Shown: positions 1 through 32,000 of the stretch, piece after piece
Position numbering within the stretch: position 1 is the first letter of the stretch
Layout of the letters: the number at the start of each line of letters is the position of its first letter
DNA from: Methanobacteriaceae archaeon
GTDB taxonomy: Archaea; Methanobacteriota; Methanobacteria; Methanobacteriales; Methanobacteriaceae
Assembly: GCA_030656015.1 (NCBI GenBank)
Contig: JAUSNX010000012.1
Coordinates: forward strand, 208,670 to 240,669
Direction: 5' to 3'
Length of the DNA: 32,000 nucleotides
The notes under the pieces: model-generated
Databases searched by the model: none
What the model saw: only the letters and a program-made list of their open reading frames with translations
What the model was told of the DNA's origin: nothing
Position numbers and translations under genes: made by a program

Positions 1-3000
1 GGCCAAAACCAAAAGGATACCATAATAAATGGAAGCAATACCGCCAGAATATTTTACATCAGAGATTCAGTTACAGTTACCATCACGAATTTAACCTTCG
101 TAAATGGACGTGCAACAGGCATCCTTCCGGTTACAGGTGGTGCCATTAGTAATAATGGTACTCTGAACGTTGTTAACTGCAATTTCACAGATAACTACGC
201 ACATAACTATGGGGGTGCAATCCACAACAACCCAACTGGAACTTTATCAGTGCACAATAGCACCTTCACAGGTAACGAGGCGGGAAATGGTGGTGCTATT
301 TCCAACTGGGGTACATTGGTCGTGAATAACAGTACCTTCAATACTAACAATGTAATTAACTTCGGTGGTGCTATTTACAACAACGGTGACAAAGCTCAAA
401 TTATTCCTTATGTGGGTAATGTGACTTTAACTAACTCTACTTTCACCAGAAACATTGCAGGTACTTATGATGCTGGTCAGGGGAGTGGTGGTGCAATTTA
501 TACTCAACTCGGTGATCTGACTGTGGATAACTGTATTTTCACAGGCCAAAATGCATTGCGTGGAGAAGGTGGTGCTATCTACAGTGTGAGGAGTACTTCT
601 AAATTTAGTAACAGCAGCTTCACAGACAACTGGGTCTATCGTGGAAGTGGTGGAGCCATCAAAAGTGAAGGTACATCCCTCGATCCAAATGTGTTGACCG
701 TGATCAACTGTACTTTCACAAGTAACAGTGCACAAGTCAATGCAGGTGCTATAGGCAGTTGGGGCACTTCTATTATTAATATAACTGGCAGTAATTTCAC
801 AAACAATAGTGTAAATTATTACTATGGTGGAGCCATCGAAATCTACGGTACATTAACTGTTACTGATTGCAACTTCGAAAATAACACGTCAACAGGTTTC
901 GGTGGAGCCATCTACAATCATGGTACATGCACAGTAACAAGTAGTAATTTCCTGAATAACACTTCAAAAGAAGGTGGAGCCATATGGGGCAGTAAAGGTT
1001 ATTTAAAAGTTATTAATTCAAATTTAACAGGTAACCTAGCAACTAATACTAACTGGGGTTATGGTGGAGGTGCCATCGGTACCACAGGTGTGATGGATGT
1101 GATTAACTGTACATTCACAGCCAACAATGCAAGTTACGACGGCGCTGCCATATGGAGCAACAACGTCACACAAATAGTCAACTGTACATTTACCAAAAAC
1201 CATGCAGAAAGTGGTGCAATATGGAACACAGGTAATGGTATTTGCACAGTAACAAGTAGTAACTTCACAAACAACACTGCAGGTTTTGGAGCTGGTATTG
1301 AGAACTATGGTATCCTGACCATCAACAGCTGTAATTTTACCAATAACAGTGCAAGTTACGGTGGGGCAATTTCCCATTTAGGTAAGAACCTGATCATCAC
1401 AAACAGCAACTTCACGGGTAACCGTGCAACATCATCCGGTGGAAATGGTGGAGTTATCTGGGCTAATTACAATACTCAGTCATTAACAGGTCCTTTTACT
1501 ATAACTGACTGTATATTCACAGATAATAGTGCAACAGGACAGGGTAGTGTTGTATGGAATAACAGAAATTTAGATAGTGGTGTAATGCACTTCAACCGCA
1601 TATTTGAGAATATAGGAAACTACGATGTGTACTCTGCCAGTGGAGCCATAGATGCAGAAAACAACTGGTGGGGTGACAACTTCAATGGAACCAATCCAAT
1701 TGCAGCCGTAAGGGTAAACAATAATGTTGATGCTGATCCATGGATCGTACTTAGATGGAGTGCGTCTCCTACCACTTTGGTGGGTCTACTAAGTACTTCA
1801 ACCGCAACTGCAGATATGAGGTACAACTCCAACGGCTTTATTCCAAGCGGAACACTGCCAGATGGAACTGTCAGATTTACAGTCAATAATTCAGGAAACT
1901 TCAACCCATTAAATAGAACCATAGGCAGTACAATAGTTACAACAATATTTACTCCTACGAAGTACGGTTTGAGCACAATAACCGCGACTGTGGATGGTTT
2001 TTCACTCAGTAAGTCAGTTCTTGTGGAGGGAACAGTAACCAGTTTAACTGTCAGCACTGTTTCGGGCTACAAAGGAGACACCACAACACTAACAGCAACA
2101 CTATGGGACACAGCCCATGCCAGAGCAGTTGTGAATGAAAAAGTTGACTTCTACGTAAACGGTGATAACGTAGGCCAGGGCACCACTGATAACAATGGAT
2201 TGGCAACCTGCAACTACAACATCATACAAAACGTTGGAACCTACACCATAAACGCAACCTTCAACGCAACCACACAATACGAACCCAGTAACGGAACAAA
2301 TAATCTAATTGTGAACGCAACACCAACCAATTTAACCATTGATGTAGCTTCAGGCTACAAAGGAGACAAAACAACACTAACAGCAACACTATGGGACGCA
2401 GCCCATGACAGAGCAGTTGTGGCTGAGAAACTTGACTTCTACGTGAACGGAGTCTATGTAGGCTACGGAACAACTGATGTCAACGGTATTGCAACCTACA
2501 ACTACAACATCGCAGAAAACGTTGGAACATACACCATAAACGCAACCTTCAACGCAACCACACAATATGCAGCCAGCACCAGAACAAATAATCTAATTGT
2601 GAATGCAACACCAACCAATTTAACCATTGACAATGTAACGGGAAATAAAGGAACAAATGTGACTTTGAAAGCAGTTTTAACTGACACTGCCCATAATTTG
2701 GCTATCAGCGGTAAAAACGTGACTTTCAAAGTTAACAGTATAGTTGTGGGTAATGCTACTACTGATACTAATGGTGTGGCCACCTTAACGTACTACATAG
2801 ATATTGTAGGTGGAAAATACACTGTTGATGCAGTATTTGCCGCGGATAACCAGTATGCAAGTTCTAATGTCACAGGAACACTCAAAATTCCCCAATCCAG
2901 TGTCTACGTTGTGGTAACAAGCAGTAAAAAGGATCCAAAGATTGGTGAAACATTCACCCTGACTTACAAACTCGGAAACAATGGACCAGACCCTGCAGAT

Positions 3001-3378
3001 AATGTTACAATAACTATTCCATTACCAGAAAGCTTTGAAATATCCAATGTCAATGGTGATGGAAATTGGACCTACAACGAAAAAACAAGAACCATAACTT
3101 GGACCTTCACAACCCTTGTAGTGGGTGATCCATATCTATATGTTACTGGAAATCTCACAAAAGCAGGTGCGTATCTCTTCAGTTTATCAATAGCCACAGC
3201 CACCTACAACGGAGATACACAAGAAATAACACCGATCACAATAAACGCTAAAAATCCCGCGCAAGTAAACGCAGCAAGCAACACAATAACCATGCAGAAT
3301 ACTGGTACACCAATAAACTACTTAATAATGGCAATATTAATGATTTTAAGTGGATTATTAGTATCTAAAATAAAATAA
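1..3378 (+). CDS. Adhesin-like cell-surface protein, 5' end outside window: PbH1/right-handed beta-helix repeats, 3 tandem Ig-like domains, DUF11/CARDB-like domain, C-terminal TM anchor
   Basis: Frame +1 is open from base 1 (GQNQKDTIINGSNTARIFYIRDSVTVTITNLTFVNGRATG...). The track's 'M' at 250 is therefore an internal GTG (Val) and the gene continues upstream. About 18 rungs counted by eye of the motif GGAI(Y/W/S)N.G.L.V.N(S/C).FT.N. The helix ends with NNWWGDN...DPWIVLRW. It is followed by three 96-aa Ig-like units and then PKIGETFTLTYKLGNNGPDPADNVTITIPLPE (DUF11 'conserved repeat domain' signature). The protein ends ...MQNTGTPINYLIMAILMILSGLLVSKIK*. Confidence 0.85.
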   Translation, partial: GQNQKDTIINGSNTARIFYIRDSVTVTITNLTFVNGRATGILPVTGGAISNNGTLNVVNCNFTDNYAHNYGGAIHNNPTGTLSVHNSTFTGNEAGNGGAISNWGTLVVNNSTFNTNNVINFGGAIYNNGDKAQIIPYVGNVTLTNSTFTRNIAGTYDAGQGSGGAIYTQLGDLTVDNCIFTGQNALRGEGGAIYSVRSTSKFSNSSFTDNWVYRGSGGAIKSEGTSLDPNVLTVINCTFTSNSAQVNAGAIGSWGTSIINITGSNFTNNSVNYYYGGAIEIYGTLTVTDCNFENNTSTGFGGAIYNHGTCTVTSSNFLNNTSKEGGAIWGSKGYLKVINSNLTGNLATNTNWGYGGGAIGTTGVMDVINCTFTANNASYDGAAIWSNNVTQIVNCTFTKNHAESGAIWNTGNGICTVTSSNFTNNTAGFGAGIENYGILTINSCNFTNNSASYGGAISHLGKNLIITNSNFTGNRATSSGGNGGVIWANYNTQSLTGPFTITDCIFTDNSATGQGSVVWNNRNLDSGVMHFNRIFENIGNYDVYSASGAIDAENNWWGDNFNGTNPIAAVRVNNNVDADPWIVLRWSASPTTLVGLLSTSTATADMRYNSNGFIPSGTLPDGTVRFTVNNSGNFNPLNRTIGSTIVTTIFTPTKYGLSTITATVDGFSLSKSVLVEGTVTSLTVSTVSGYKGDTTTLTATLWDTAHARAVVNEKVDFYVNGDNVGQGTTDNNGLATCNYNIIQNVGTYTINATFNATTQYEPSNGTNNLIVNATPTNLTIDVASGYKGDKTTLTATLWDAAHDRAVVAEKLDFYVNGVYVGYGTTDVNGIATYNYNIAENVGTYTINATFNATTQYAASTRTNNLIVNATPTNLTIDNVTGNKGTNVTLKAVLTDTAHNLAISGKNVTFKVNSIVVGNATTDTNGVATLTYYIDIVGGKYTVDAVFAADNQYASSNVTGTLKIPQSSVYVVVTSSKKDPKIGETFTLTYKLGNNGPDPADNVTITIPLPESFEISNVNGDGNWTYNEKTRTITWTFTTLVVGDPYLYVTGNLTKAGAYLFSLSIATATYNGDTQEITPITINAKNPAQVNAASNTITMQNTGTPINYLIMAILMILSGLLVSKIK
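2038..2901 (+). repeat. 3 x 288-bp in-frame tandem repeat encoding Ig-like (Big-type) domains inside the adhesin gene
   Basis: Unit starts are at 2038 (accagtttaac), 2326 (accaatttaacc) and 2614 (accaatttaacc), giving a period of exactly 288 nt (96 aa). Copies 1 and 2 share long exact runs, e.g. acaacactaacagcaacactatgggac and tacaccataaacgcaaccttcaacgcaaccacacaata. Copy 3 is clearly more diverged. Confidence 0.9.
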
Positions 3379-4317: not shown

Positions 4318-5079
4318 CTAAAGGCCATTGAATACAATTACCCATCCATCAATTTTTCCATTTAGATCTTTAGACGGATTTAAAGTTCCACTAATTTTTA
4401 TTTTTACCCCAGCCTTAGTTCTAATTAGTTCATCTGAAAATTCTAATGGGCGGGCCATAGAAATATCTTCCGTATCTAAAAGGCCTAATTGGCCACTGAT
4501 GGGATTTAAAACCTTCATGAGATCCATTCCAATTGCATCCTCTTTTAACCATCCAGTGATGTCTTCTGCTTTAGAGTTTATCAATCTTACTTGTCTTTTC
4601 GAGTCAGTAGATATAATTGCGTCAGAAACATTTCTTAATATATTTTCCATCTGCTGCTGGTTTTTTATAAGGCGCAATTCCATTTTATGTTTGTAAAGTG
4701 TAATTTCAATTGCAGTATGGAGGTCACTATCATCAAAGGGCTTGCTTAAGAAACTTGAATCTCCTTTAAGAATATACCCCGAAGGTTCTGTTATTTTAGC
4801 TCTTTCCACTGTACTTTCATCACTATAAGCAGTTAAATAAATAACTGGAATCCCAAATCTGCGCCTAATTTCTTGTGCGGCTTCAATACCGTCCATTTTA
4901 CCTTTTAAACGGATATCCATGATAATTATATCTGGTGAAAGCTCTTCTGCTTTTTTAATTGCTTCCTCCCCAGTTGAAACCGCTGCTAGAACATCATAGC
5001 CTAATTCTACAAGTCCTTCACTGATGTCATCTGCAGTTATACTTTCATCTTCTACAACCAATATTTTGGCACTGGCCAT
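4318..5079 (-). CDS. Response regulator: receiver (REC) domain + PAS domain, no recognisable output domain
   Basis: N-terminus KILVVEDE...DIIIMDIRL...PVIYLTAY...KPF shows the REC acidic pocket, phospho-Asp and T/K signature. The C-terminal half, ENILRNVSDAIISTDSKRQVRLINSKAEDITGW, is a PAS core. GGGGAGAT SD lies upstream of the ATG. Confidence 0.85.
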   Translation of the reverse strand: MASAKILVVEDESITADDISEGLVELGYDVLAAVSTGEEAIKKAEELSPDIIIMDIRLKGKMDGIEAAQEIRRRFGIPVIYLTAYSDESTVERAKITEPSGYILKGDSSFLSKPFDDSDLHTAIEITLYKHKMELRLIKNQQQMENILRNVSDAIISTDSKRQVRLINSKAEDITGWLKEDAIGMDLMKVLNPISGQLGLLDTEDISMARPLEFSDELIRTKAGVKIKISGTLNPSKDLNGKIDGWVIVFNGL

Positions 5080-5359
5080 TTTTTATCTCCCCAATTGCAC
5101 CTATAAATGTTTATTACATTTTATACAATTAAAAATTGACTTAAATATCTTTATTTGATAATAGAAAATTTATTACTAATTATTTATGTTTTAATCATAT
5201 AAAATATATCTGTTTTTTTACTTTTATTTTAGAATTATAAAATCAAAAGATAAACAGAACACTAAAAAATAGCTAAAAAAAAAAATAAAAATAAATTTAA
5301 GTATTTAATAAAAAATTTAATAATTTAAGCGTTTGAAAAACTATTTTAATTTCAGAATT

Positions 5360-6883
5360 CTACCTAACCATCAAAATTTTGTTTATTGAATCTAAAACTG
5401 CTTCTACACTGGCCATGACCACATCGTCTCTGGTTGAGCGTCCAGTAGCATTATTTCCATCAGTATCACTCATTATGACAAATACTTCAGCGAGAGCATT
5501 AGTTCCACCAGTTATAGCATCTATATGATACTCTTGAAGTTCAATGTCCAGAGTATCACTCATTAAACTCTGAATAGCATTAATTGCAGCATCTACCGGA
5601 CCCACACCTGTTTTAGCAGCAGATTTGATTTCATCGTGTATGCTGAGCTTTACTGTAGCCGTCGGCATTACATTTTCCCCAGTCATAACGGCAATTCCTT
5701 CCAGTTTAACTATTTCTTCCTTGGCTTTACCTAAAATAGTCACTGCAATGGCCTTTAAATCAGCATCAGTAACCTTTTTACCCTTATCTCCAAGAGTTTT
5801 AATCTGATCATAGACCGTGCAGAACTGGTCTTCATTCATTTCAATACCATATTCATCTAATTTTGATCTAAGGGCATTGGCTCCAGTATGTTTTCCTAAA
5901 ACAATTTTGCGAGTGTGACCAACCATTTCAGGACTAATAGGCTCATATGTTTCTGCATTTTCCAGAATACCATGCACATGAATACCAGACTCATGAGCAA
6001 ACGCATTTTCTCCCACAATAGCCTTGTTAGGTGGCATTTTTATCCCCGTGATTCTGGAGACAAATTCCGATAGATTAACTAGCTGCTGAGTTTTGATATC
6101 TAAAGGGAAATCATAACGAGCGATTAAGACCATAACTACTTCTTCTAAAGAAGCATTGCCTGCCCTCTCACCCAGACCATTTACAGTAGCATGTACCTGT
6201 TCTGCTCCAGCTTCCACTGCAGCCAGCGAATTTGCAACTGCCAGTCCAAAATCGTCATGACAGTGCACACTTATACTCGACTTAATAGTTTTTTTAAGTT
6301 CTTTAACCAGCCAGTTCATAGAACCTGGGATCATTACCCCTACCGTATCGGGTACATTAATGAAATCAACCCCGGCCTCATCCACGGCTTGGTAAATCTC
6401 AGAAAGGTATTCAAATTCAGTTCTGGTAGCGTCTTCTGCCGAAAATTCAGCCACTATACCATGGTCTTTTATATATTCCACAGCATCAACTGCTTTACTT
6501 AAAATATCTTCTTTAGTCATTTTAAGCTTAAATTCTCTATGCAGAGGAGATGTACCAATAAATGTATGAATATAATCAACTTCGCAATCTATTGCAGCAT
6601 CCAGGTCACCTTTCAAAGTTCTTGCCAAACCACAAACCTGGGCATCCAGGCCCAGAGATAATATTTCACGAGCTGCTTCTTTTTCTCCTTCAGAAGCCGC
6701 AGGGAATCCAACCTCAATTGTTTTCACACCTAAATGGTCCAGCTTTTTAGCTATCCGTATCTTCTCATCCACGGTCAGGGCCACACCGGGTGTTTGTTCA
6801 CCGTCTCTTAAAGTAGTATCAAATATTACTACCTCTTCCGGTAAATTCATGGTTTTTTTTACTTTCTCAATGTACATAGACAT
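5360..6883 (-). CDS. leuA: 2-isopropylmalate synthase / (R)-citramalate synthase (LeuA/CimA family, with C-terminal LeuA-dimer regulatory domain)
   Basis: [45 protein letters not shown] and AFAHESGIH are the DRE-TIM HMGL-like signature motifs. The 507-aa length includes the C-terminal regulatory domain, which excludes short homocitrate synthase AksA. LeuA versus CimA cannot be resolved by eye. The start could instead be ATG 6877 (better SD spacing) or 6850. Confidence 0.85.
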
Positions 6884-7916: not shown

Positions 7917-8053
7917 AATTAATCTAATCTGTACTGTTTACATTTAATAATATCTCTTGAAATTCGATCCCAATACAACAATGAGATGATGATAATAAAA
8001 ATCTGAGTTTAAATAATTAGAAATTCAATCTTATTTTTTATTATGAGTTAAAA

Positions 8054-8090
8054 CTGATAACTTATAACTTATAATTTAGAACTTATAATC
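8054..8090. repeat. Copy A of dispersed intergenic TTATAAGTT/AACTTATAA element (three direct ACTTATAA units)
   Basis: ctgataACTTATAACTTATAAtttagaACTTATAAtc. Its reverse complement aligns with 17161-17192 as TTATAAGTTnTAAn(+7-nt TTATAAG unit)TTATAAGTTATCAGTT, with only 2 mismatches apart from the 7-nt insertion. Confidence 0.75.
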
Positions 8091-17158: not shown

Positions 17159-17193
17159 AGTTATAAGTTGTAACTTATAAGTTATCAGTTATC
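17159..17193. repeat. Copy B of dispersed TTATAAGTT/AACTTATAA element (perfect 9-bp inverted repeat, 2-nt spacer)
   Basis: agTTATAAGTTgtAACTTATAAgttatcagttatc lies between the modE-like stop (17128) and the ferredoxin start (17209/17215). It could overlap the TATA box of the fdx-hisB unit. Confidence 0.75.
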
Positions 17194-17208
17194 ATTATAT
17201 CACGAGGA

Positions 17209-20019: not shown

Positions 20020-22266
20020 TTAATATCTTCCTGTTTTGAATTTAATGACATATCCTGGAGACAAAGCATTACCTGCAAGATCACTTATTGATGAAGAAGG
20101 TATGTAAACCGAGTAATAGGAATTAATGCTTCTTTTGTTGCTGGTTTTTATGTAAAGAATGTTTCCTGAAATCCACTTGGATATATTGACTATTTTTCCA
20201 TATTTGTCTTTCACTATAATCTTAGACCAATTGATACCTAATTTAATGTTTTCACTGAATTTAAGATAAATGATCTTTGTTCTTGGAACACCAGTAGCAG
20301 ACTTCTTAGGATATGTATAAGTCACCTTAGGTGGAATTAAATCTATTTTAACCGATTTATGTATACTCTGACTACCAGTACTGGCTGCAACATCAGCATA
20401 TCCTGCTTTTGAACCGCCTTTTAAAGTAGATCTGGCCACGCCGTTAATCATGGAAACATATGTGGTTCCAATTGTTCCTAAGTTAGAGGAAAATTTCACC
20501 ACTATACCATCTGGAACATGGCAATTGTTCGGGTCGTGGTAGACGCCATTAACATCATGGAGTAAGTCTGCCGTTAGTACAGCAATTCCGCCATTTTTAA
20601 TAACAGCCGTGCTCGGATTAAATCTTAAAACCAGCCAGGAAGAAACATTGGAATCAACAACACGATCTGATGGATTTTGATTGGAACCCCACCAGTTGTA
20701 TCGAGCATCAACGGAGCCTCCTTCATTGTATATATCTTCTGGATAGTATCCGTCCATACCATTTTCCATGATCTGACAGAAGTGAACCCTTAGGATGCCT
20801 TCATTGTAGAAAACATCACCATTCATATTAGCGCCGTTCCTTCTGAAAACACTGCCAGATACGTTTACTGTGGAATTGGCCCAGTTAGAAATGGCCCCGC
20901 CCAGATCCGCATAATTATCAGTGAAATTACTATCATAGACACTAGAATTACCGTAATTAGAAATGGCACCACCATCAAAAGCTAAATCGTCCAAACCACT
21001 GGTGGCAGTGTTTTCTACGAATATACTATTTTTAACAATTAAATAGCCCATATTAGAAATAGCAGCCCCACTATCTGCCAGATTACCAGTGAATTCACAG
21101 TTCCTCATGGAAGTTGTGCCTTCATAATTGGAAATAGCACCACCACAATAAGTTGTATCATTATAAGAACTTTTTGCAGTATTATTTGTAAATTTGCTTG
21201 AATTGATGATTAAAGCGCCAGCTCCAGTAAAAATAGCGCCACCGAAACATCCCGTATCATTATTCAAACTATTAACTAAGTTATTTGTGAAATTATTTGC
21301 ATTAATGGTCAAATTTCCGATATTGTAAACAGCACCACCATATTCTGCAACATTTAATAAGAATTCACAATCAGATAAAGTAGAATTACCCTGGTTTGAT
21401 ATGGCCCCTCCACCAGTGGCAGAATTCCTTGAAAATGAGACTTTATTAGAAATAAACTTACCTCCATTATCTATGGCTCCACCAAGAAGATTAGCTTCAT
21501 TATTCACAAATTCACTTTCATTGGCACTTAAATTCCCATAATTACCAATAGCACCACCATAGGATATTCCATTTAAATTACTGGCAGAGTTATTGTTAAA
21601 AACGCTGCGAATAATTTTTAAATCTCCTAAATTAAGAATAGCACCACCAACAGCTCCGGAATCATATGTTGCAAAGTTATTGTTAAAAATACCATCATTG
21701 ATAGTCAAATTACCATAATTAAAAATAGCACCGCCTAATCCTGCTTTGTTAAATGTAAAAGATGTTTTTAATAAGCTCAAAGTCCCATTATTATAGATAG
21801 CACCTCCGATTGAGCCATTACCATTAGTAATAGTCAAATTCATGATAATAACTGTTATATTTGATTTAATCAGAAATATTTGGGCAGAATTAGTCCCATT
21901 TATGATAGTGCCATCACGGCTCTGGCCTTGAATAGTCATATTCTTATCAAGAGTTATATTATTGTTATTCTCCCCAGAATATAGTCCATCAGCGATATTA
22001 ACTATTCCTCCATCAGATACGGTTCCTGTAGCATTTTTAATAGATTTTTTAGGCCCCACCGTACTTATTCCATCCCACACATCTGATTCACCATCCCAGC
22101 TATCATTTCCTGAGGAATCATTCACATAAATAATGCCTGGATTAGCAGAAACATCACCTATAGAAGCTAAGGAAATTATTCCGAATACCAGTAATATAAA
22201 TAAAACAATTACTGGACTTTTAAGATTATTAGTTGTATTTGTAATCCTTTTCACCTCCAAATTCAA
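20020..22266 (-). CDS. Adhesin-like secreted protein: signal peptide, PbH1 beta-helix repeats, Ig-like domain, C-terminal SbsA-Ig/Big_5-like domain
   Basis: The N-terminus has a hydrophobic core and ...SIGDVSA/NPG cleavage-like site. About 12 GGAI.N.G.L rungs are present. YNWWGSN...SSWLVLRF is the same junction motif as in the first adhesin. The C-terminus PPKVTYTYPKKSATGVPRTKIIYLKFSENI...DLAGNAL is SbsA_Ig-like. There is no C-terminal TM anchor. Confidence 0.88.
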   Translation of the reverse strand: MNLEVKRITNTTNNLKSPVIVLFILLVFGIISLASIGDVSANPGIIYVNDSSGNDSWDGESDVWDGISTVGPKKSIKNATGTVSDGGIVNIADGLYSGENNNNITLDKNMTIQGQSRDGTIINGTNSAQIFLIKSNITVIIMNLTITNGNGSIGGAIYNNGTLSLLKTSFTFNKAGLGGAIFNYGNLTINDGIFNNNFATYDSGAVGGAILNLGDLKIIRSVFNNNSASNLNGISYGGAIGNYGNLSANESEFVNNEANLLGGAIDNGGKFISNKVSFSRNSATGGGAISNQGNSTLSDCEFLLNVAEYGGAVYNIGNLTINANNFTNNLVNSLNNDTGCFGGAIFTGAGALIINSSKFTNNTAKSSYNDTTYCGGAISNYEGTTSMRNCEFTGNLADSGAAISNMGYLIVKNSIFVENTATSGLDDLAFDGGAISNYGNSSVYDSNFTDNYADLGGAISNWANSTVNVSGSVFRRNGANMNGDVFYNEGILRVHFCQIMENGMDGYYPEDIYNEGGSVDARYNWWGSNQNPSDRVVDSNVSSWLVLRFNPSTAVIKNGGIAVLTADLLHDVNGVYHDPNNCHVPDGIVVKFSSNLGTIGTTYVSMINGVARSTLKGGSKAGYADVAASTGSQSIHKSVKIDLIPPKVTYTYPKKSATGVPRTKIIYLKFSENIKLGINWSKIIVKDKYGKIVNISKWISGNILYIKTSNKRSINSYYSVYIPSSSISDLAGNALSPGYVIKFKTGRY

Positions 22267-22544: not shown

Positions 22545-23375
22545 TTATTGTGGTTTTTCCATTAAAACTGATTTAGCCATGGTTTGTCCTTTTCCACCGT
22601 GTGGAGTTCGGACAACAGTGTCATTGGCCTTTTCAATTTCTCTTGCTTCAGCAGCGAGTTTAGCAGCAGTAGTAATCATTTCGTGAGCAGAAGCTACGAT
22701 TGGTATGTACTTTTCTGCATCTTTAGTCATGAAACATCCTTCGACGTCAATATCAGCTACTTTGGTAGCGATGTCGTAGGCAGCCATGGCTTTAGCTTTA
22801 GCGTATGGGCTGGAGAATTGAGCAGCTGCAACAGCTACATCTCGGGAAATTACCACTTTAGGTAATTCAATTGCACTTCCAGCTTCAACAGCATTTACTG
22901 CTGCATCAATAGTGTCTTGTACAACTCTGTAAGCACCAGTTAAAGCTAATACTTTAATTACATCAGCATTGAAGGAAGCCATTTCAGTTGGGTCCAGGAA
23001 TTCTCTTCGTGCACCGATCATTGGGTCGGCCTTCACAATAATGTAACCTAAACCTTGTTCTTCCATTTCTTCTTTGGATCGTAGACCAGGAGCGTCACCT
23101 ATGATGATTGCAGGGACATCTGCATCAGATAATAATTCTCTGGCTTTAGCAGGTCCTGGAGCACCTGGGTTAGGGCTTATGAATATGACAAAGTCCCTTT
23201 CCATTTCAAGCATTAATGGTACGGCTTTTTCGATTTCTTCTGGGTTCATTTTAGCCCCAGATCCTATTACACATACGTCTATGTTTGGTCGGTCTGCTCT
23301 CTCGTCGAGTAATAAGTCCAAGACAGGAGAAGTACCGATGTTACCACATTTAATTATACCGATTTTTACAACCAT
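22545..23375 (-). CDS. mtd: F420-dependent methylenetetrahydromethanopterin dehydrogenase
   Basis: MVVKIGIIKCGNIGTSPVLDLLLDERADR...FISPNPGAPGP is the highly conserved Mtd N-terminus. The protein is 276 aa and has a GGTGAT SD. Confidence 0.95.
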   Translation of the reverse strand: MVVKIGIIKCGNIGTSPVLDLLLDERADRPNIDVCVIGSGAKMNPEEIEKAVPLMLEMERDFVIFISPNPGAPGPAKARELLSDADVPAIIIGDAPGLRSKEEMEEQGLGYIIVKADPMIGARREFLDPTEMASFNADVIKVLALTGAYRVVQDTIDAAVNAVEAGSAIELPKVVISRDVAVAAAQFSSPYAKAKAMAAYDIATKVADIDVEGCFMTKDAEKYIPIVASAHEMITTAAKLAAEAREIEKANDTVVRTPHGGKGQTMAKSVLMEKPQ

Positions 23376-28172: not shown

Positions 28173-28694
28173 TTAAGATTTGGTTAAGTATTTTGCCTTG
28201 GTTACATGAGATTTTCCATGAACCAGACAGAAATCCGCGTCACAGTTACTGCATACCCACATACCTTCAGGACATGACCTTCCCCGTTCGTATTTTAGTT
28301 TTCCTGACTTTTTACAGTAGGGACAGTAATTTTTAAATTGTTCTGAATGTAATTTGTAATCTTTGTGTAAGCTACAAGAACATCTAGCTGTGGAGTCTAC
28401 ATATTGGGAAGTTGCTGTAACACTGGTTGCTCCCACATTTGGTAAAGTAGATTTAGTAGATTTTTTCTTGGTTTTTTTCTTTTTTGTAACATAGAAATAA
28501 GATGCATTTACTGCAGGTGCTTTAACAACCTGTGCAGTTATTTTAGTAGTATCTACGTTTTTGGAGCTAAGTTCTCCAAAAATCGGCACACCTGACACTA
28601 CCATACAGGATACTAGTGCCACGGCCATAATAAGTCGTCGCGTAATTATGCCCGCCTCCATGTCCAAATTTTGAAAATACTCAATTAAGAGCAT
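28173..28694 (-). CDS. Signal/anchor-bearing protein with Lys-rich spacer and C-terminal Cys/His-rich zinc-ribbon-like domain (hypothetical)
   Basis: A hydrophobic N-terminal segment (ITRRLIMAVALVSCMVVSGVPIF) is followed by KKKKTKKKSTKS. The C-terminal pattern is C-x-C-x16-C-x2-C-x13-C-x6-C-x2-C-x4-C-x2-H-x3-H. TTTATATG (TATA-like) lies about 35 nt upstream of ATG 28694. ATG 28661 is an alternative start. Confidence 0.6.
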   Translation of the reverse strand: MLLIEYFQNLDMEAGIITRRLIMAVALVSCMVVSGVPIFGELSSKNVDTTKITAQVVKAPAVNASYFYVTKKKKTKKKSTKSTLPNVGATSVTATSQYVDSTARCSCSLHKDYKLHSEQFKNYCPYCKKSGKLKYERGRSCPEGMWVCSNCDADFCLVHGKSHVTKAKYLTKS

Positions 28695-29355: not shown

Positions 29356-30522
29356 ATGGCCTACCATAAGACAATTATAGTTATCCGAACAAATTGTTAT
29401 TCAATGAATACTATGCGTAAAATGCAGGTCCTAAGTGATACTGCCCAGTTTGATCTCTGCGATTATGTGAATCACCAAACAAGCTCTCGGCCAAATTTAC
29501 CTGGAATTTACTACAGTACTGCCCACGGAGGATGTCAAGTTCCCCTATTTAAGGTTTTAATGACTAATAAGTGCATTAATGATTGCAAGTATTGTGTGAA
29601 TCATAGTAAAAGAAATTTTACCCGGATGGAACTCAGCCCTGAAGAATTAACCCGCGTTTTCTTGAATTACTATCAAAAAAAATATGTAGAAGGGTTATTT
29701 TTAAGTTCTGGAATTTCTGGAGACATAGACCCATCCATGGAAAAGGTGGTGGAAGTGGCACGACTTCTAAGATTAGAACACGGTTATTCTGGATATATAC
29801 ACCTTAAAATTCTTCCAGGTTCATCAAAAGACCTCATTAAAAGAGCCATGGGCTTGGCCAATCGAGTTAGTGTTAATATTGAAGCTGCCACTCCAGATGG
29901 TCTGGCTGAACTTTCCAGTACCAAAGACTATCAAAAAGACATTATGCGGCGTCTAAAATGGATAAAAAATATCCATAACAAAGATCCCCTTTATGCACCT
30001 TCAGGCCAAACCACCCAGATGATTGTAGGGGCCACTGATGAAACTGATGAAGATATTTTAAATAGAGTTAAATGGCTTTATGATAAGTTAGATGTTAAAA
30101 GAAGTTATTTTAGTGCTTTTAAACCTTTAGAAGACACTCCCCTAGAATCCAGAGCAGAACCTCACCATAATAGGCCTAATAGGCTTTATCAGGCCGATGC
30201 ACTTTTAAATTCATATAATTTTAATTTAGAAGAACTAGTTTTTAAGGAAAATGGACTTTTAGATGTGGACGAAGATCCAAAGTATTCTGCTGCTAGGTCC
30301 ATGGATATTTTTCCAGTGGAAATCAATCATGCATCATATCATGATTTAATCCGGGTCCCGGGGATTGGAACTATTTCAGCTGGAAAAATAATTGCTATTC
30401 GTAAAAAACATACATTTACTAAATTGGAAGAATTAAAAAAGTTAGGTGTTGCAGTAAAACGTGCGGAACCATTTATAAAACTTAAAGGAATTTATCAAAC
30501 ACCTTTAGATTTTTTTAATTAA
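29356..30522 (+). CDS. Radical SAM protein with C-terminal helix-hairpin-helix ('putative DNA modification/repair radical SAM protein' family)
   Basis: The CINDCKYC (CxxxCxxC) cluster motif follows LFKVLMTNKC. The N-terminal VLSDTAQFDLC motif and C-terminal LIRVPGIGTISAGKIIAIRKK (HhH) are also present. The real start is probably one of the internal ATGs at 29401, 29410 or 29419. No SD is evident at any candidate. Confidence 0.8.
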   Translation: MAYHKTIIVIRTNCYSMNTMRKMQVLSDTAQFDLCDYVNHQTSSRPNLPGIYYSTAHGGCQVPLFKVLMTNKCINDCKYCVNHSKRNFTRMELSPEELTRVFLNYYQKKYVEGLFLSSGISGDIDPSMEKVVEVARLLRLEHGYSGYIHLKILPGSSKDLIKRAMGLANRVSVNIEAATPDGLAELSSTKDYQKDIMRRLKWIKNIHNKDPLYAPSGQTTQMIVGATDETDEDILNRVKWLYDKLDVKRSYFSAFKPLEDTPLESRAEPHHNRPNRLYQADALLNSYNFNLEELVFKENGLLDVDEDPKYSAARSMDIFPVEINHASYHDLIRVPGIGTISAGKIIAIRKKHTFTKLEELKKLGVAVKRAEPFIKLKGIYQTPLDFFN

Positions 30523-30610: not shown

Positions 30611-30652
30611 TTATAACTTAGATGTTATAAGTTATAACTTTTAACTTATAAT
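30611..30652. repeat. Copy C (diverged) of dispersed TTATAAGTT/AACTTATAA element
   Basis: ttataacttagatgTTATAAGTTataacttttAACTTATAAt has 9-bp inverted arms with a 9-nt spacer, plus the inner palindrome AGTTATAACT. It lies in the convergent gap between the radical SAM gene and the ParA-partner gene. Confidence 0.65.
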
Positions 30653-30691: not shown

Positions 30692-31237
30692 CTATATCTC
30701 ATCGAAAAGATCCCATATTTCAGGATATTTTTCTTCAACTGCTTCTTCAATTAATTTTGACGCTTCTTTACTGATACTAAATTCTGGTTGTGTTTTTTTG
30801 AGATATCTTAAAACAGCTGCTGAGCGAGAAGACCATAGCGTAATTCGGGGATTCTTTTTAACATCACTAATCACCATATTTATTCTCTGATTTTCAGCAG
30901 AATCGGCTTCATCTGCGTCATTGGTAGTTGTAGATTTTGAAATTAAAGATTTAATTGGCTTTTCAACTTTGGGAGATGAATTATCAGAAGGTCTGGAAAC
31001 AGGGGTTTTAGTTTTAGATGAATCCGCTTTTACAGATTTTCTAGATTTCTGAGATTTAGAAGATCTGTTATTCTTTAAATCCTCAGATATTTCTATTTCA
31101 TCAGAACCACTTTTTAGTTGATTTTCTTCAGTTTCATTATTCTCATCCCGGGTTTTGGCCTTAATCAAAGCATCCAAGCCCATTCCTAGACCCGTGCTTT
31201 TTGATGGGGGAGATTTACGACGGGCCATATTAACCAT
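30692..31237 (-). CDS. ParA-partner protein: ParB-type N-terminal ParA-interaction peptide + disordered linker + putative C-terminal RHH (SegB/ParG-like role inferred)
   Basis: (MVN)MARRKSPPSKSTGLGMGLDALIKAK matches the conserved ParB/Spo0J N-terminus (GLGrGLdALl). About 100 aa of S/K/D/E/N-rich sequence follow. The C-terminus is NPRITLWSSRSAAVLRYLKKTQPEFSISKEASKLIEEAVEEKY. ATG 31237 overlaps parA by 8 nt. The alternative ATG 31228 lies 1 nt after the parA stop and follows GGATGGT. Confidence 0.7.
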   Translation of the reverse strand: MVNMARRKSPPSKSTGLGMGLDALIKAKTRDENNETEENQLKSGSDEIEISEDLKNNRSSKSQKSRKSVKADSSKTKTPVSRPSDNSSPKVEKPIKSLISKSTTTNDADEADSAENQRINMVISDVKKNPRITLWSSRSAAVLRYLKKTQPEFSISKEASKLIEEAVEEKYPEIWDLFDEI

Positions 31238-32000
31238 CCCGGTTAATGAGTTCCTGAGCCAGTTTTAAATAGGCAGTAGTGCCGGCACTTTCCTGATCAT
31301 ATAATATGCATGGTTTTCCATAGCTAGGTGCCTCTGCCAAACGAACATTACGTGGAATTGTAGTTTTAAATATGTATTCTTCCTCACCAAAATATTTCTT
31401 AACCTCTTGGTGAACATCTCTGGCTAAACGTGTCCTAGAATCGTATAAAGTTATTAAAATACCCTTAATATTAGCTGAAGTCTTTAAACGCTCTTCAACA
31501 AGATTTATAGTTTTTAATAAGTCAGCCATTCCTTCCAAAGCATAATATTCCGCCTGAATAGGAATGATAACACTATCTGATGCAACCAGTGCATTTAGGG
31601 TGAGTATGCCAAGAGAAGGAGGAACATCAATTAAAATATAGTCAAACATTCCCTTTACACTTTTTATGGCATCTTGAAGAATAGAATGATATCCAATCTC
31701 CCTACTAAGTTCTACTTCAGCCCCACTAAGTGAAATATTACTGGGGACAATGTACAAATCATCTAAAATAGTAGGAATCATTACTTCTTCCATGTTATTT
31801 TGCCTGCTCAACACCGTGTAAATAGTATTTTCCAGTTCGCCTTTTTGAACTCCAAAACCTGTTGTAGCATTACCTTGTGGGTCTAAATCTATTACCAGAA
31901 CCTTTTTATCCATAAGGGCTAGTGCAGTTGATAAGTTCACAGCAGTAGTTGTTTTTCCACAGCCACCTTTTTGATTAATTATTGAAATTACTTCTCCCAT
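31230..32000 (-). CDS. parA: ParA/Soj-family partition ATPase (deviant Walker A)
   Basis: ISIINQKGGCGKTTTAVNLS (deviant Walker A KGGxGKT), VLVIDLDPQGNAT and DYILIDVPPSLG are present. The protein closely resembles bacterial chromosomal Soj at 256 aa. Its ATG falls on the last three bases of the window, so the upstream region is not visible. Confidence 0.9.
   Translation of the reverse strand: MGEVISIINQKGGCGKTTTAVNLSTALALMDKKVLVIDLDPQGNATTGFGVQKGELENTIYTVLSRQNNMEEVMIPTILDDLYIVPSNISLSGAEVELSREIGYHSILQDAIKSVKGMFDYILIDVPPSLGILTLNALVASDSVIIPIQAEYYALEGMADLLKTINLVEERLKTSANIKGILITLYDSRTRLARDVHQEVKKYFGEEEYIFKTTIPRNVRLAEAPSYGKPCILYDQESAGTTAYLKLAQELINRDG

Follow-up and report, generated by a model that had tools for sequence, protein, structure and literature searches.

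The window analyzed here, a 32,000-nucleotide (nt) stretch of contig JAUSNX010000012.1 from a Methanobacteriaceae archaeon, ends with an operon in which a parA gene is followed directly by a gene encoding a homologue of SegB, the partner of the Sulfolobus ATPase SegA. Arrays of a 7-bp palindromic repeat lie on both sides of this operon and at further intergenic positions (Table 1). These features are likely to represent a chromosomal SegAB-type cassette for partition or organization of the chromosome, in a variant that uses the ParA-ParB interface of bacteria. We infer DNA binding and ATPase stimulation by the window SegB from sequence comparison and from the analysis of related loci. An earlier note on this DNA had described a Soj-like ATPase whose partner joins a ParB-type N-terminal peptide to a long linker and a putative ribbon-helix-helix (RHH) module. 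Its coordinates for the end of ParA, both candidate start codons of the partner, the GLGMGLDALI peptide, and the C-terminal module were all confirmed; the module (30853-30695) corresponds to residues 126-178 of the 178-amino-acid (aa) protein.

The C-terminal ~70 residues of the partner are, as judged from sequence and from a structural model, a true homologue of Sulfolobus SegB and an RHH domain. In phmmer searches of the PDB, the window protein matches Sulfolobus solfataricus (Sso) SegB (7DUV, E = 8.5e-8), as does a 99-aa Methanothermobacter orthologue (E = 3e-8), and a 20-sequence profile reaches this entry at E = 4.7e-13. SegB was the sole family returned by these single-sequence and profile searches, and neither omega nor ParG appeared in them. 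The full-length AlphaFold 2 (AF2) model is disordered to approximately residue 105 and then forms alpha1, an extended segment, and alpha2 to alpha4, matching the alpha1-beta-alpha2-alpha3-alpha4 topology of Sso SegB (PMC8682754). Modeled alone, the domain has a predicted local distance difference test score (pLDDT) of 83 and helices at 9-29, 38-50, 56-71, and 73-78 (domain-model numbering), and its strand segment is extended but unpaired in this monomeric model. The sole real Foldseek match to the domain model is the Sso SegB-DNA complex (7dv2_A; probability 1.00, template modeling scores 0.68/0.73, root-mean-square deviation 2.3 Å, 31% identity). A Foldseek search with the full-length model returned only noise, because 60% of the chain is disordered. 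The RHH assignment of the earlier note is thus borne out by SegB homology and by Foldseek. Its likening of the module to SegB, ParG, and omega holds for SegB; membership in the ParG/omega family is ruled out by the lack of any sequence signal in the PDB searches.

The predicted DNA-reading strand carries the published SegB signature, K/R-D/N-P-K/R-I-G/T-V/L-W-S (PMC12139799), as KKNPRITLWS at residues 124-133. A diverse alignment of 20 sequences shows no variation at N126, P127, R128, I129, L131, W132, and S133 of this strand. The residues that contact bases in Sso SegB, K52, W56, and K75 (PMC8682754), correspond to R128, W132, and S151, all three of which are invariant, and the Ser at the K75 position would fit an altered DNA specificity. 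The window SegB matches nothing in Pfam or NCBIfam, and hence has no ParB/Srx or helix-turn-helix (HTH) domain, which agrees with the earlier claim that the partner lacks a ParB core. Homologues range from 97 to ~330 aa, with the linker accounting for most of this range, and linker columns of the 20-sequence alignment are gap-rich and nearly unconserved.

The window SegB has 1314 homologues at E <= 0.01. A scan of species-representative genomes found a relative in 248 genomes, from which 80 loci were kept, mostly from metagenome-assembled genomes; both genes are readable in 65 of them. Titles of 79 of the kept loci are of Methanobacteriales type or denote unassigned archaea, and one is titled Bacteroidaceae. 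The latter (L034, CAVDAS010000003.1) is a typical Methanobrevibacter-type parA-segB locus with heptad arrays inside a bin labeled Bacteroidaceae, a label that is probably a binning error. The parA gene immediately precedes segB in 65/65 loci, and the spacing between the two is from -11 to +11 nt in almost every case, so the synteny that the earlier note had raised as a check is retained. When 1.84 billion representative proteins were searched with a profile, 283 clusters emerged, and many distant members, named ones being from Methanothrix, Archaeoglobaceae, and Methanomicrobiales, combine an N-terminal (K/R)(K/R)x-L-G-(K/R)-G-(L/V/I)-x-A-(L/I)-(I/F) motif with an NPRI(S/T)LWS domain. In three distant loci, parA overlaps segB by 4 nt. 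Many SegB homologues (for example, P0001, P0003, P0006, P0026, and P0065) are named "AAA family ATPase" by NCBI, despite having no P-loop or ATPase domain; this looks like a propagated misannotation, whose source is perhaps the neighboring ParA.

The segB gene could start at ATG 31237, which gives an 8-nt overlap with parA, or at ATG 31228, 1 nt past the parA stop codon. The second is likelier, because the upstream ATG belongs to the last codons of parA itself, and because gene callers and several close orthologues use the corresponding start, MARRK. With either start, the sequence indicates that parA and segB are translationally coupled. A protein identical to the window SegB (P0001) is predicted on 8 contigs. 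No open reading frame (ORF) with the ParB GERRxRA box was found within 10 kb of segB in related loci, by a scan whose positive control worked. The earlier note had named a full-length ParB just past base 32000 as evidence that would refute its proposal. This was looked for in a contig that is identical over this region (L003), where 339 nt of intergenic DNA beyond parA are followed by a divergent DDE transposase gene instead. A canonical ParB at that position is ruled out by the L003 sequence and the GERRxRA scan, and the window partner, by its sequence, is not a ParB. The transposase (DUF772 and DDE_Tnp_1; L003 1-1401) lies a short way past base 32000 of the window. In two further assemblies of this sequence (L001 and L002), the contig ends 260-355 nt upstream of parA, and such contig breaks are expected, because a repeated insertion sequence element is situated there.

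The N terminus of the window SegB resembles the peptide with which ParB contacts ParA. In Myxococcus xanthus ParB, this motif is L11-G-R13-G-L15-x-x-L18-I19, in which each of the four hydrophobic residues is required for ParA binding and recruitment, and an R13A mutant retains binding and nearly loses ATPase stimulation (PMC12462528). Approximately half of bacterial ParBs have Lys at the central position (PMC12462528). All four hydrophobic positions and both glycines are present in the window SegB, and the central R/K is replaced by Met. The earlier claim of a ParB-type peptide therefore stands as regards the hydrophobic and glycine positions, which match and are conserved, but the activating central residue is absent here. 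In the 20-sequence alignment, L14, G15, G17, L18, L21, and I22 are invariant, and the stretch between the motif and the RHH domain drifts. Of the closest homologues, 117/120 have the motif, as do all members (106/106) of a broader set of euryarchaeal proteins, which answers the question of its conservation in orthologues. Because the motif is conserved in homologues and the adjacency of parA and segB is kept, this arrangement is more than a product of chance.

At the central position of the motif, the 65 species-level loci have K (33 loci), R (21), M (8), or L (3). Among the loci with Met or Leu are those of the nearest relatives of the window genome and a Methanothermobacter locus, and in these forms K-x-K-T-(R/K) follows the motif. 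A tblastn search of 7.3 Gb of plasmid records with the 25-aa Methanobrevibacter N terminus MAKKKKTGLGRGLDSLIPDFPEDDE returned two matches, the better of which is to residues 1-23 of an annotated ParB encoded after a ParA (MAGQKKGGLGRGLAALIPTGPEEG; E = 2, not significant alone). A phmmer search of the PDB with the 38-aa N-terminal peptide returned nothing, and the 20-sequence profile picked up no ParB chains in the PDB through the motif. Its shortness puts the peptide beyond the reach of HMMER statistics; the evidence linking it to ParB is therefore its residue-wise correspondence to the published motif, together with the weak tblastn match, which falls exactly on a ParB N terminus.

The SegB proteins of Sulfolobales carry the full ParB-type motif in 0/45 cases, and 43/45 begin M-S-E-L-D-(F/L)-(L/I)-(L/I) followed by a basic run. 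MAFFT places the Sulfolobales LDFLLK under the LDALIK half of the euryarchaeal motif. This alignment, to which we give moderate weight as the match is short, hints that all SegB tails might be versions of one amphipathic docking helix.

The ATPase has the deviant Walker A sequence KGGCGKTT and matches the AAA_31 (3e-65), CbiA (4e-26), and ParA domains. Its closest solved structure is M. xanthus ParA (8RAY, E = 6e-76, 49% identity), followed by Helicobacter pylori Soj (6IUB, 5e-62) and Thermus thermophilus Soj (1WCV, 1.5e-60). Entry 7DUT, which was checked to be S. solfataricus SegA, matches at 2.3e-20 over residues 4-170 only, more weakly than Pyrococcus MinD. A Sulfolobales-type SegA identity is ruled out, because the similarity to SegA is too distant. 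By sequence the ATPase is a bacterial-type chromosomal Soj, and by synteny and position it is the counterpart of SegA. Mutagenesis and nuclear magnetic resonance have located the ParB-peptide pocket of M. xanthus ParA at V116, L150, L152, L155, L187, and L192, and the site for the central arginine of ParB at Y81, E82, D110, and E117 (PMC12462528). The pocket residues correspond to V96, L130, I132, L135, L167, and L172 in the window ParA, all six being conserved or conservatively replaced, and the DNA-binding R238 corresponds to R220. The equivalents of Y81 and E117 are invariant among the 65 ParA orthologues.

The heptad motif comprises tandem copies of TAA(C/G)TTA, a 7-bp palindrome with 3-nt arms and a central C/G. 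Three palindromes that the earlier note had put forward as candidate binding sites, at 30611-30652, 17159-17193, and 8054-8090, all proved to be arrays of this one conserved heptad. A fourth array is located ~100-130 nt upstream of parA, just beyond the window (L003 1611-1640). Allowing up to 2 mismatches, the window holds 18 copies of the dimer TTATAACTTATAAC, compared with 1.15 expected. In an unbiased count of 7-mers in 350-nt operon flanks from the 65 loci, the top seven are rotations of TTATAAC, enriched 13- to 27-fold. When an array is defined as at least three in-phase units, arrays are present in 46/49 intergenic segments upstream of parA and in 22/38 downstream of segB, versus 25/330 elsewhere (Fisher p = 3e-37 with an odds ratio of 187, and p = 8e-13, respectively). 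A weight matrix of 1115 units has the frequencies T.76, A.82, A.84, S (C/G).82, T.88, T.89, and A.84. Array density away from the operon is estimated at ~1 per 22 kb. TTATAAC-type heptads also occur directly upstream of parA in three loci outside Methanobacteriales (from Archaeoglobaceae, a Methanothrix-like organism, and an unassigned archaeon), in DNA of 42-48% GC, and the strand residues predicted to read the heptad are invariant wherever it is conserved. The downstream array of the window occupies the 169-nt gap between segB and a convergent gene (29356-30522, plus strand) for a radical SAM protein with a C-terminal helix-hairpin-helix (HHH_3), and this is the same neighbor in all contigs of the window genome.

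Table 1. Features of the parA-segB operon and heptad arrays in the window
Feature	Position	Strand	Remarks
parA/soj-type partition ATPase gene (SegA counterpart)	31230..32000	-	256 aa; ATG 32000, start codon exactly at window edge; stop codon TAA 31232-31230
segB homologue	30692..31228	-	178 aa; alternative ATG 31237 gives 181 aa; stop codon TAG 30694-30692, followed by an oligo-T run
Shine-Dalgarno-like GGGATGGT	31233..31240	-	within the end of parA, 5-12 nt upstream of ATG 31228
ParB-type ParA-binding motif G-L14-G-M16-G-L18-D-A-L21-I22	31163..31192	-	encodes GLGMGLDALI; basic MARRKSPPSKST before, KAKTR after
Disordered S/K/E/D/N-rich linker	30914..31162	-	residues 23-105; AF2 pLDDT 50-60, no secondary structure
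SegB-type RHH DNA-binding/dimerization domain	30695..30913	-	residues 106-178; alpha1, strand, alpha2, alpha3, alpha4
Predicted DNA-reading beta-strand NPRITLWS (SegB signature)	30830..30853	-	residues 126-133; aligns to Sso DPKIGVWS
Heptad array, candidate segS	30611..30652	.	TTATAAC TTAGATG TTATAAG TTATAAC TTTTAAC TTATAAT; 40 nt past segB stop
Second heptad array, 5 units	17161..17195	.	intergenic, ~210 nt upstream of hisB (IGPD)
Third heptad array, 7 units	8041..8089	.	intergenic, between a PHP-domain gene and a DUF63 membrane-protein gene

The arrays flanking the operon are probably its centromere (segS), a prediction made from sequence because their layout matches that of experimentally determined SegB sites. 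The Sso SegB site is TCTAGA(w)TCTACA, with the "almost invariant core AGA g/c TCT", and that of S. acidocaldarius (Saci) consists of three [AGNGTNN] repeats at -25 to -6 of segA, with 51 double repeats elsewhere on the chromosome. The array adjacent to hisB recurs in approximately a dozen other Methanobacterium loci (for example, L041 18757-18886), 8-13 kb from segAB, and as such is, by sequence, a positionally conserved second site. In L089 (3042-3111; also L086, ~3037-3106), the linker-coding DNA after the N-terminal motif of segB is itself a run of ten in-phase heptads (TGATAAC TCAGAAG TTAAAAG TTCTAAC TTAGAAG ...) of the same family as the array upstream of parA. This run encodes the 7-residue repeats SEVKSSN LEVRTSK SEVISSN, and SEVIS/LEV-like repeats are common in linkers across the wider family. 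Perhaps in lineages of this type the centromere is embedded in segB, and requirements on the DNA itself may in part determine the disordered linker.

A mechanism can be proposed in which SegB dimers would read the heptads with their paired beta-strands, by using R128 and W132, and would coat an array side by side. Side-by-side coating is proposed because Sulfolobus SegB, on its 7-bp-periodic segS, and omega behave in this way. The flexible N-terminal tails of array-bound SegB might then fold into short amphipathic helices and dock in the cleft of ATP-bound, DNA-bound ParA dimers. Docking would tether the complex to ParA and, together with DNA, would cause ATP to be hydrolyzed and ParA to be released, as happens with ParB. 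Packing on the array might substitute for CTP-dependent clamp closure in bringing two tails together, and linker length would set the reach of the tails. Segregation could then proceed as a ParABS-like diffusion ratchet in rod-shaped cells, and the array just upstream of parA probably doubles as an autoregulatory operator. In the window genome, where the central residue is Met16, the M. xanthus R13A result leads one to expect a peptide that binds but does not strongly stimulate the ATPase. Stimulation might thus be weak there or might depend on the basic K-x-K-T-R run (K23/K25/R27), as on KKKRK in Sulfolobus SegB.

Several observations weigh against a SegAB cassette with a ParB-type interface. 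Given the M. xanthus R13A result, the central Met speaks against the ATPase of the window genome being efficiently stimulated. Across the 65 loci, the central residue does not covary with the equivalents of Y81, E82, D110, and E117, of which the E82 and D110 positions vary without pattern relative to it. The motif comprises only nine residues, and convergence may explain it. A downstream array is present in only 58% of loci, and 7.6% of unrelated intergenic segments have one, so the heptad is not confined to the operon and could be the site of a different factor; its TTATAA core is also AT-rich and TATA-like. The assignment of the arrays to SegB is a correlative one, which we infer from sequence. 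Moreover, Sulfolobus SegAB is reported to be unlike ParABS in vivo (PMC12139799).

One alternative, to which we assign a low probability, is that SegB is mainly an RHH transcription factor or nucleoid organizer, that the arrays are operators (of parA, hisB, and the DUF63 gene), and that ParA modulates or positions the protein without being a true motor. The arrays are indeed in promoter-proximal intergenic DNA, often directly against the parA start, and the RHH partition proteins omega and ParG also act as repressors. In addition, Sulfolobus SegB binds many chromosomal sites and compacts DNA (PMC12284271). However, a plain regulator would hardly be expected to be coupled to a ParA at every locus and to bear a dedicated ParA-docking peptide that several archaeal orders conserve, and arrays also occur downstream of the operon, where they serve no promoter, and, in L089, inside the segB coding sequence. 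About equally improbable is that the arrays are not SegB sites at all, and instead are bound by another protein or are a generic AT-rich promoter or terminator feature that is common near the operon. This would account for the arrays in unrelated intergenic segments, for the two window arrays that are far from segAB, and for the resemblance of the TTATAA core to an archaeal TATA box. It does not readily account for the enrichment next to the operon or for the persistence of the motif beside parA-segB in the 42-48% GC genomes of other orders, where it stands out. The layout also equals that of experimental SegB sites (3-nt inverted arms, a central C/G, and a 7-bp period), and residues of the predicted reading strand are invariant wherever the heptad is conserved.

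Slightly less probable again is that the likeness to the ParB peptide is convergent or coincidental, and that SegB contacts its ATPase by other means (compare ParG-ParF and omega-delta) or uses the helix for self-association or membrane contact. The motif is short, the tblastn match to a ParB N terminus has an E-value of 2, and phmmer finds nothing in the PDB with the peptide; Sulfolobales SegB has only the second half of the motif, MSELDFLLKKK, and the central R/K is dispensable in two clades. Yet none of the four hydrophobic residues or the two glycines varies, in contrast to the freely drifting flanks and linker. The ATPase encoded with segB belongs specifically to the Soj type of bacteria, and its pocket for such a peptide is intact; R/K is central in 54/65 loci, which is about the R/K mixture of bacterial ParBs.

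The proposed cassette shares with Sulfolobales SegAB (SSO0034/SSO0035, and S. acidocaldarius) its gene order, with genes that overlap or abut, a homologous C-terminal domain of the same topology bearing the K-N/D-P-K/R-I-T/G-L/V-W-S strand, and an unstructured N-terminal tail. The SegB sites of Sulfolobales are likewise 7-bp periodic, situated just upstream of the ATPase gene, and accompanied by extra chromosomal copies. In contrast, the window ATPase is Soj-type, whereas SegA is a protein of 220 aa that forms an atypical dimer. The window N terminus has LG(x)GLDALI, whereas the Sulfolobus peptide (MSELDFLLKKKRK) has only MSELDFLLKKK; the first 21 residues of Sso SegB are needed for its ~1000-fold stimulation of the SegA ATPase (PMC8682754). 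The base-contacting K75 of Sso SegB is Ser in the window protein, the repeat is TAA(S)TTA rather than AGA(S)TCT or AGNGTNN, and the hosts are rod-shaped methanogens.

Bacterial ParABS (Soj/Spo0J, as in M. xanthus) has the same ATPase subfamily, peptide pocket, and DNA-binding arginine, and the same operon order of parA followed by its partner. Unlike ParB, the window partner lacks the ParB/Srx CTPase, HTH, and C-terminal dimerization domains, and so would have no CTP-gated clamp, sliding, or parS; it would instead read DNA by an RHH domain on heptad arrays. Two tails are juxtaposed by clamp closure in ParB, whereas dimerization and side-by-side packing on the array are proposed here. The type Ib systems omega/delta (pSM19035) and ParG/ParF (TP228) also pair a ParA-type ATPase with a small dimeric RHH protein whose flexible N-terminal tail activates it; their resemblance to the proposed cassette is confined to architecture and logic. 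The omega protein of pSM19035 binds contiguous 7-bp heptads, direct and inverted, that serve as both centromere and operator, and the window arrays closely resemble this layout. Compared with omega and ParG, however, the window fold has additional alpha1 and alpha4 helices, the tail motif is ParB-type, and the system is chromosomal and archaeal. The AspA-ParB-ParA system of the Sulfolobus plasmid pNOB8 similarly combines a bacterial-type ParA, a ParB-like N-terminal part, and an archaeal DNA-recognition module. It differs in comprising three proteins, in which the ParB N-terminal domain is a real one and the HTH adaptor, AspA, is a protein of its own, whereas the window SegB would join only a short ParB peptide to an RHH domain in one polypeptide.

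A broader reading combines three claims, and we consider it somewhat doubtful that all three hold together. The SegB and ParB tails would be the same device, such that euryarchaeal SegAB would be a chimera in which an archaeal RHH domain is joined to a parAB module of bacteria (Soj and the ParB N-terminal peptide), the Sulfolobales MSELDFLLKKK would be a shortened derivative, and all SegBs would activate their ATPase through the ParB cleft. The TAA(S)TTA arrays would serve as centromeres both in Methanobacteriales and in several methanogen and Archaeoglobus lineages besides. The linker-coding DNA of segB would, in certain lineages, contain the array itself, and the linker of 7-residue repeats would be partly a by-product of the centromere.

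SegB homologues of Methanobacteriales have already been published (PMC5120986, PMC12139799, PMC12284271), and for Euryarchaeota their location beside ParA genes is on record, with M. thermautotrophicus and "the ancestor of Methanobacteriales" among the examples. Hence the cassette itself is known, and the earlier suggestion of a methanogen counterpart of SegAB is correct as to homology but is not new. This literature describes SegB as archaea-specific and "evolutionarily unrelated to ParB", and leaves open how its N terminus activates SegA (PMC8682754, PMC12284271). It also describes the euryarchaeal N terminus as poorly conserved relative to Sulfolobus and reports no convincing sites beyond Thermoproteota. 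A link between SegB and ParB's ParA-binding motif was not found in the literature searched, which did not include the 2012 PNAS paper that founded SegAB or its supplement; papers in that literature which cite the 2012 study contain no mention of a ParB-like motif. When the letters of the heptad dimer were looked up as text, the one match was in an unrelated paper on a phage. The ParB-type peptide in SegB and the heptad arrays thus are apparently new.

To our knowledge, no centromere is known for Methanobacteriales, and the arrays are a candidate for this order, which holds the main archaea of the human gut and rumen. The combination of a Soj-type ATPase that has an intact pocket with a ParB docking peptide is a concrete structural hypothesis that can be tested with peptides and point mutants. 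It also suggests that two kinds of partition system are related by module exchange, and the Met and Leu variants are a natural experiment on the role of the central "arginine" position.

Several distant loci have distinctive surroundings. In an Archaeoglobaceae locus (L086), parA-segB is located between two Cdc6/Orc1 genes (1-1236 and 4933-6225), and a PIN/RHH toxin-antitoxin pair adjoins; either a replication origin is nearby or the locus belongs to an integrated element or a plasmid. Loci L087-L089 have neighbors associated with mobile elements or defense (GmrSD, a DDE transposase, and HicB).

Elsewhere in the window, a 173-aa ORF (28173-28694, minus strand) encodes an N-terminal hydrophobic segment, a lysine-rich stretch, and a C-terminal Cys-rich region with several CxxC motifs, and has no Pfam match. 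Two large surface-protein genes (250-3378, plus strand, and 20020-22266, minus strand), which have Chlamydia-PMP repeats, Big_3_5/Big_5, and DUF11, look like adhesin-type genes. The MTD gene at 22545-23375 confirms that the organism is a hydrogenotrophic methanogen.

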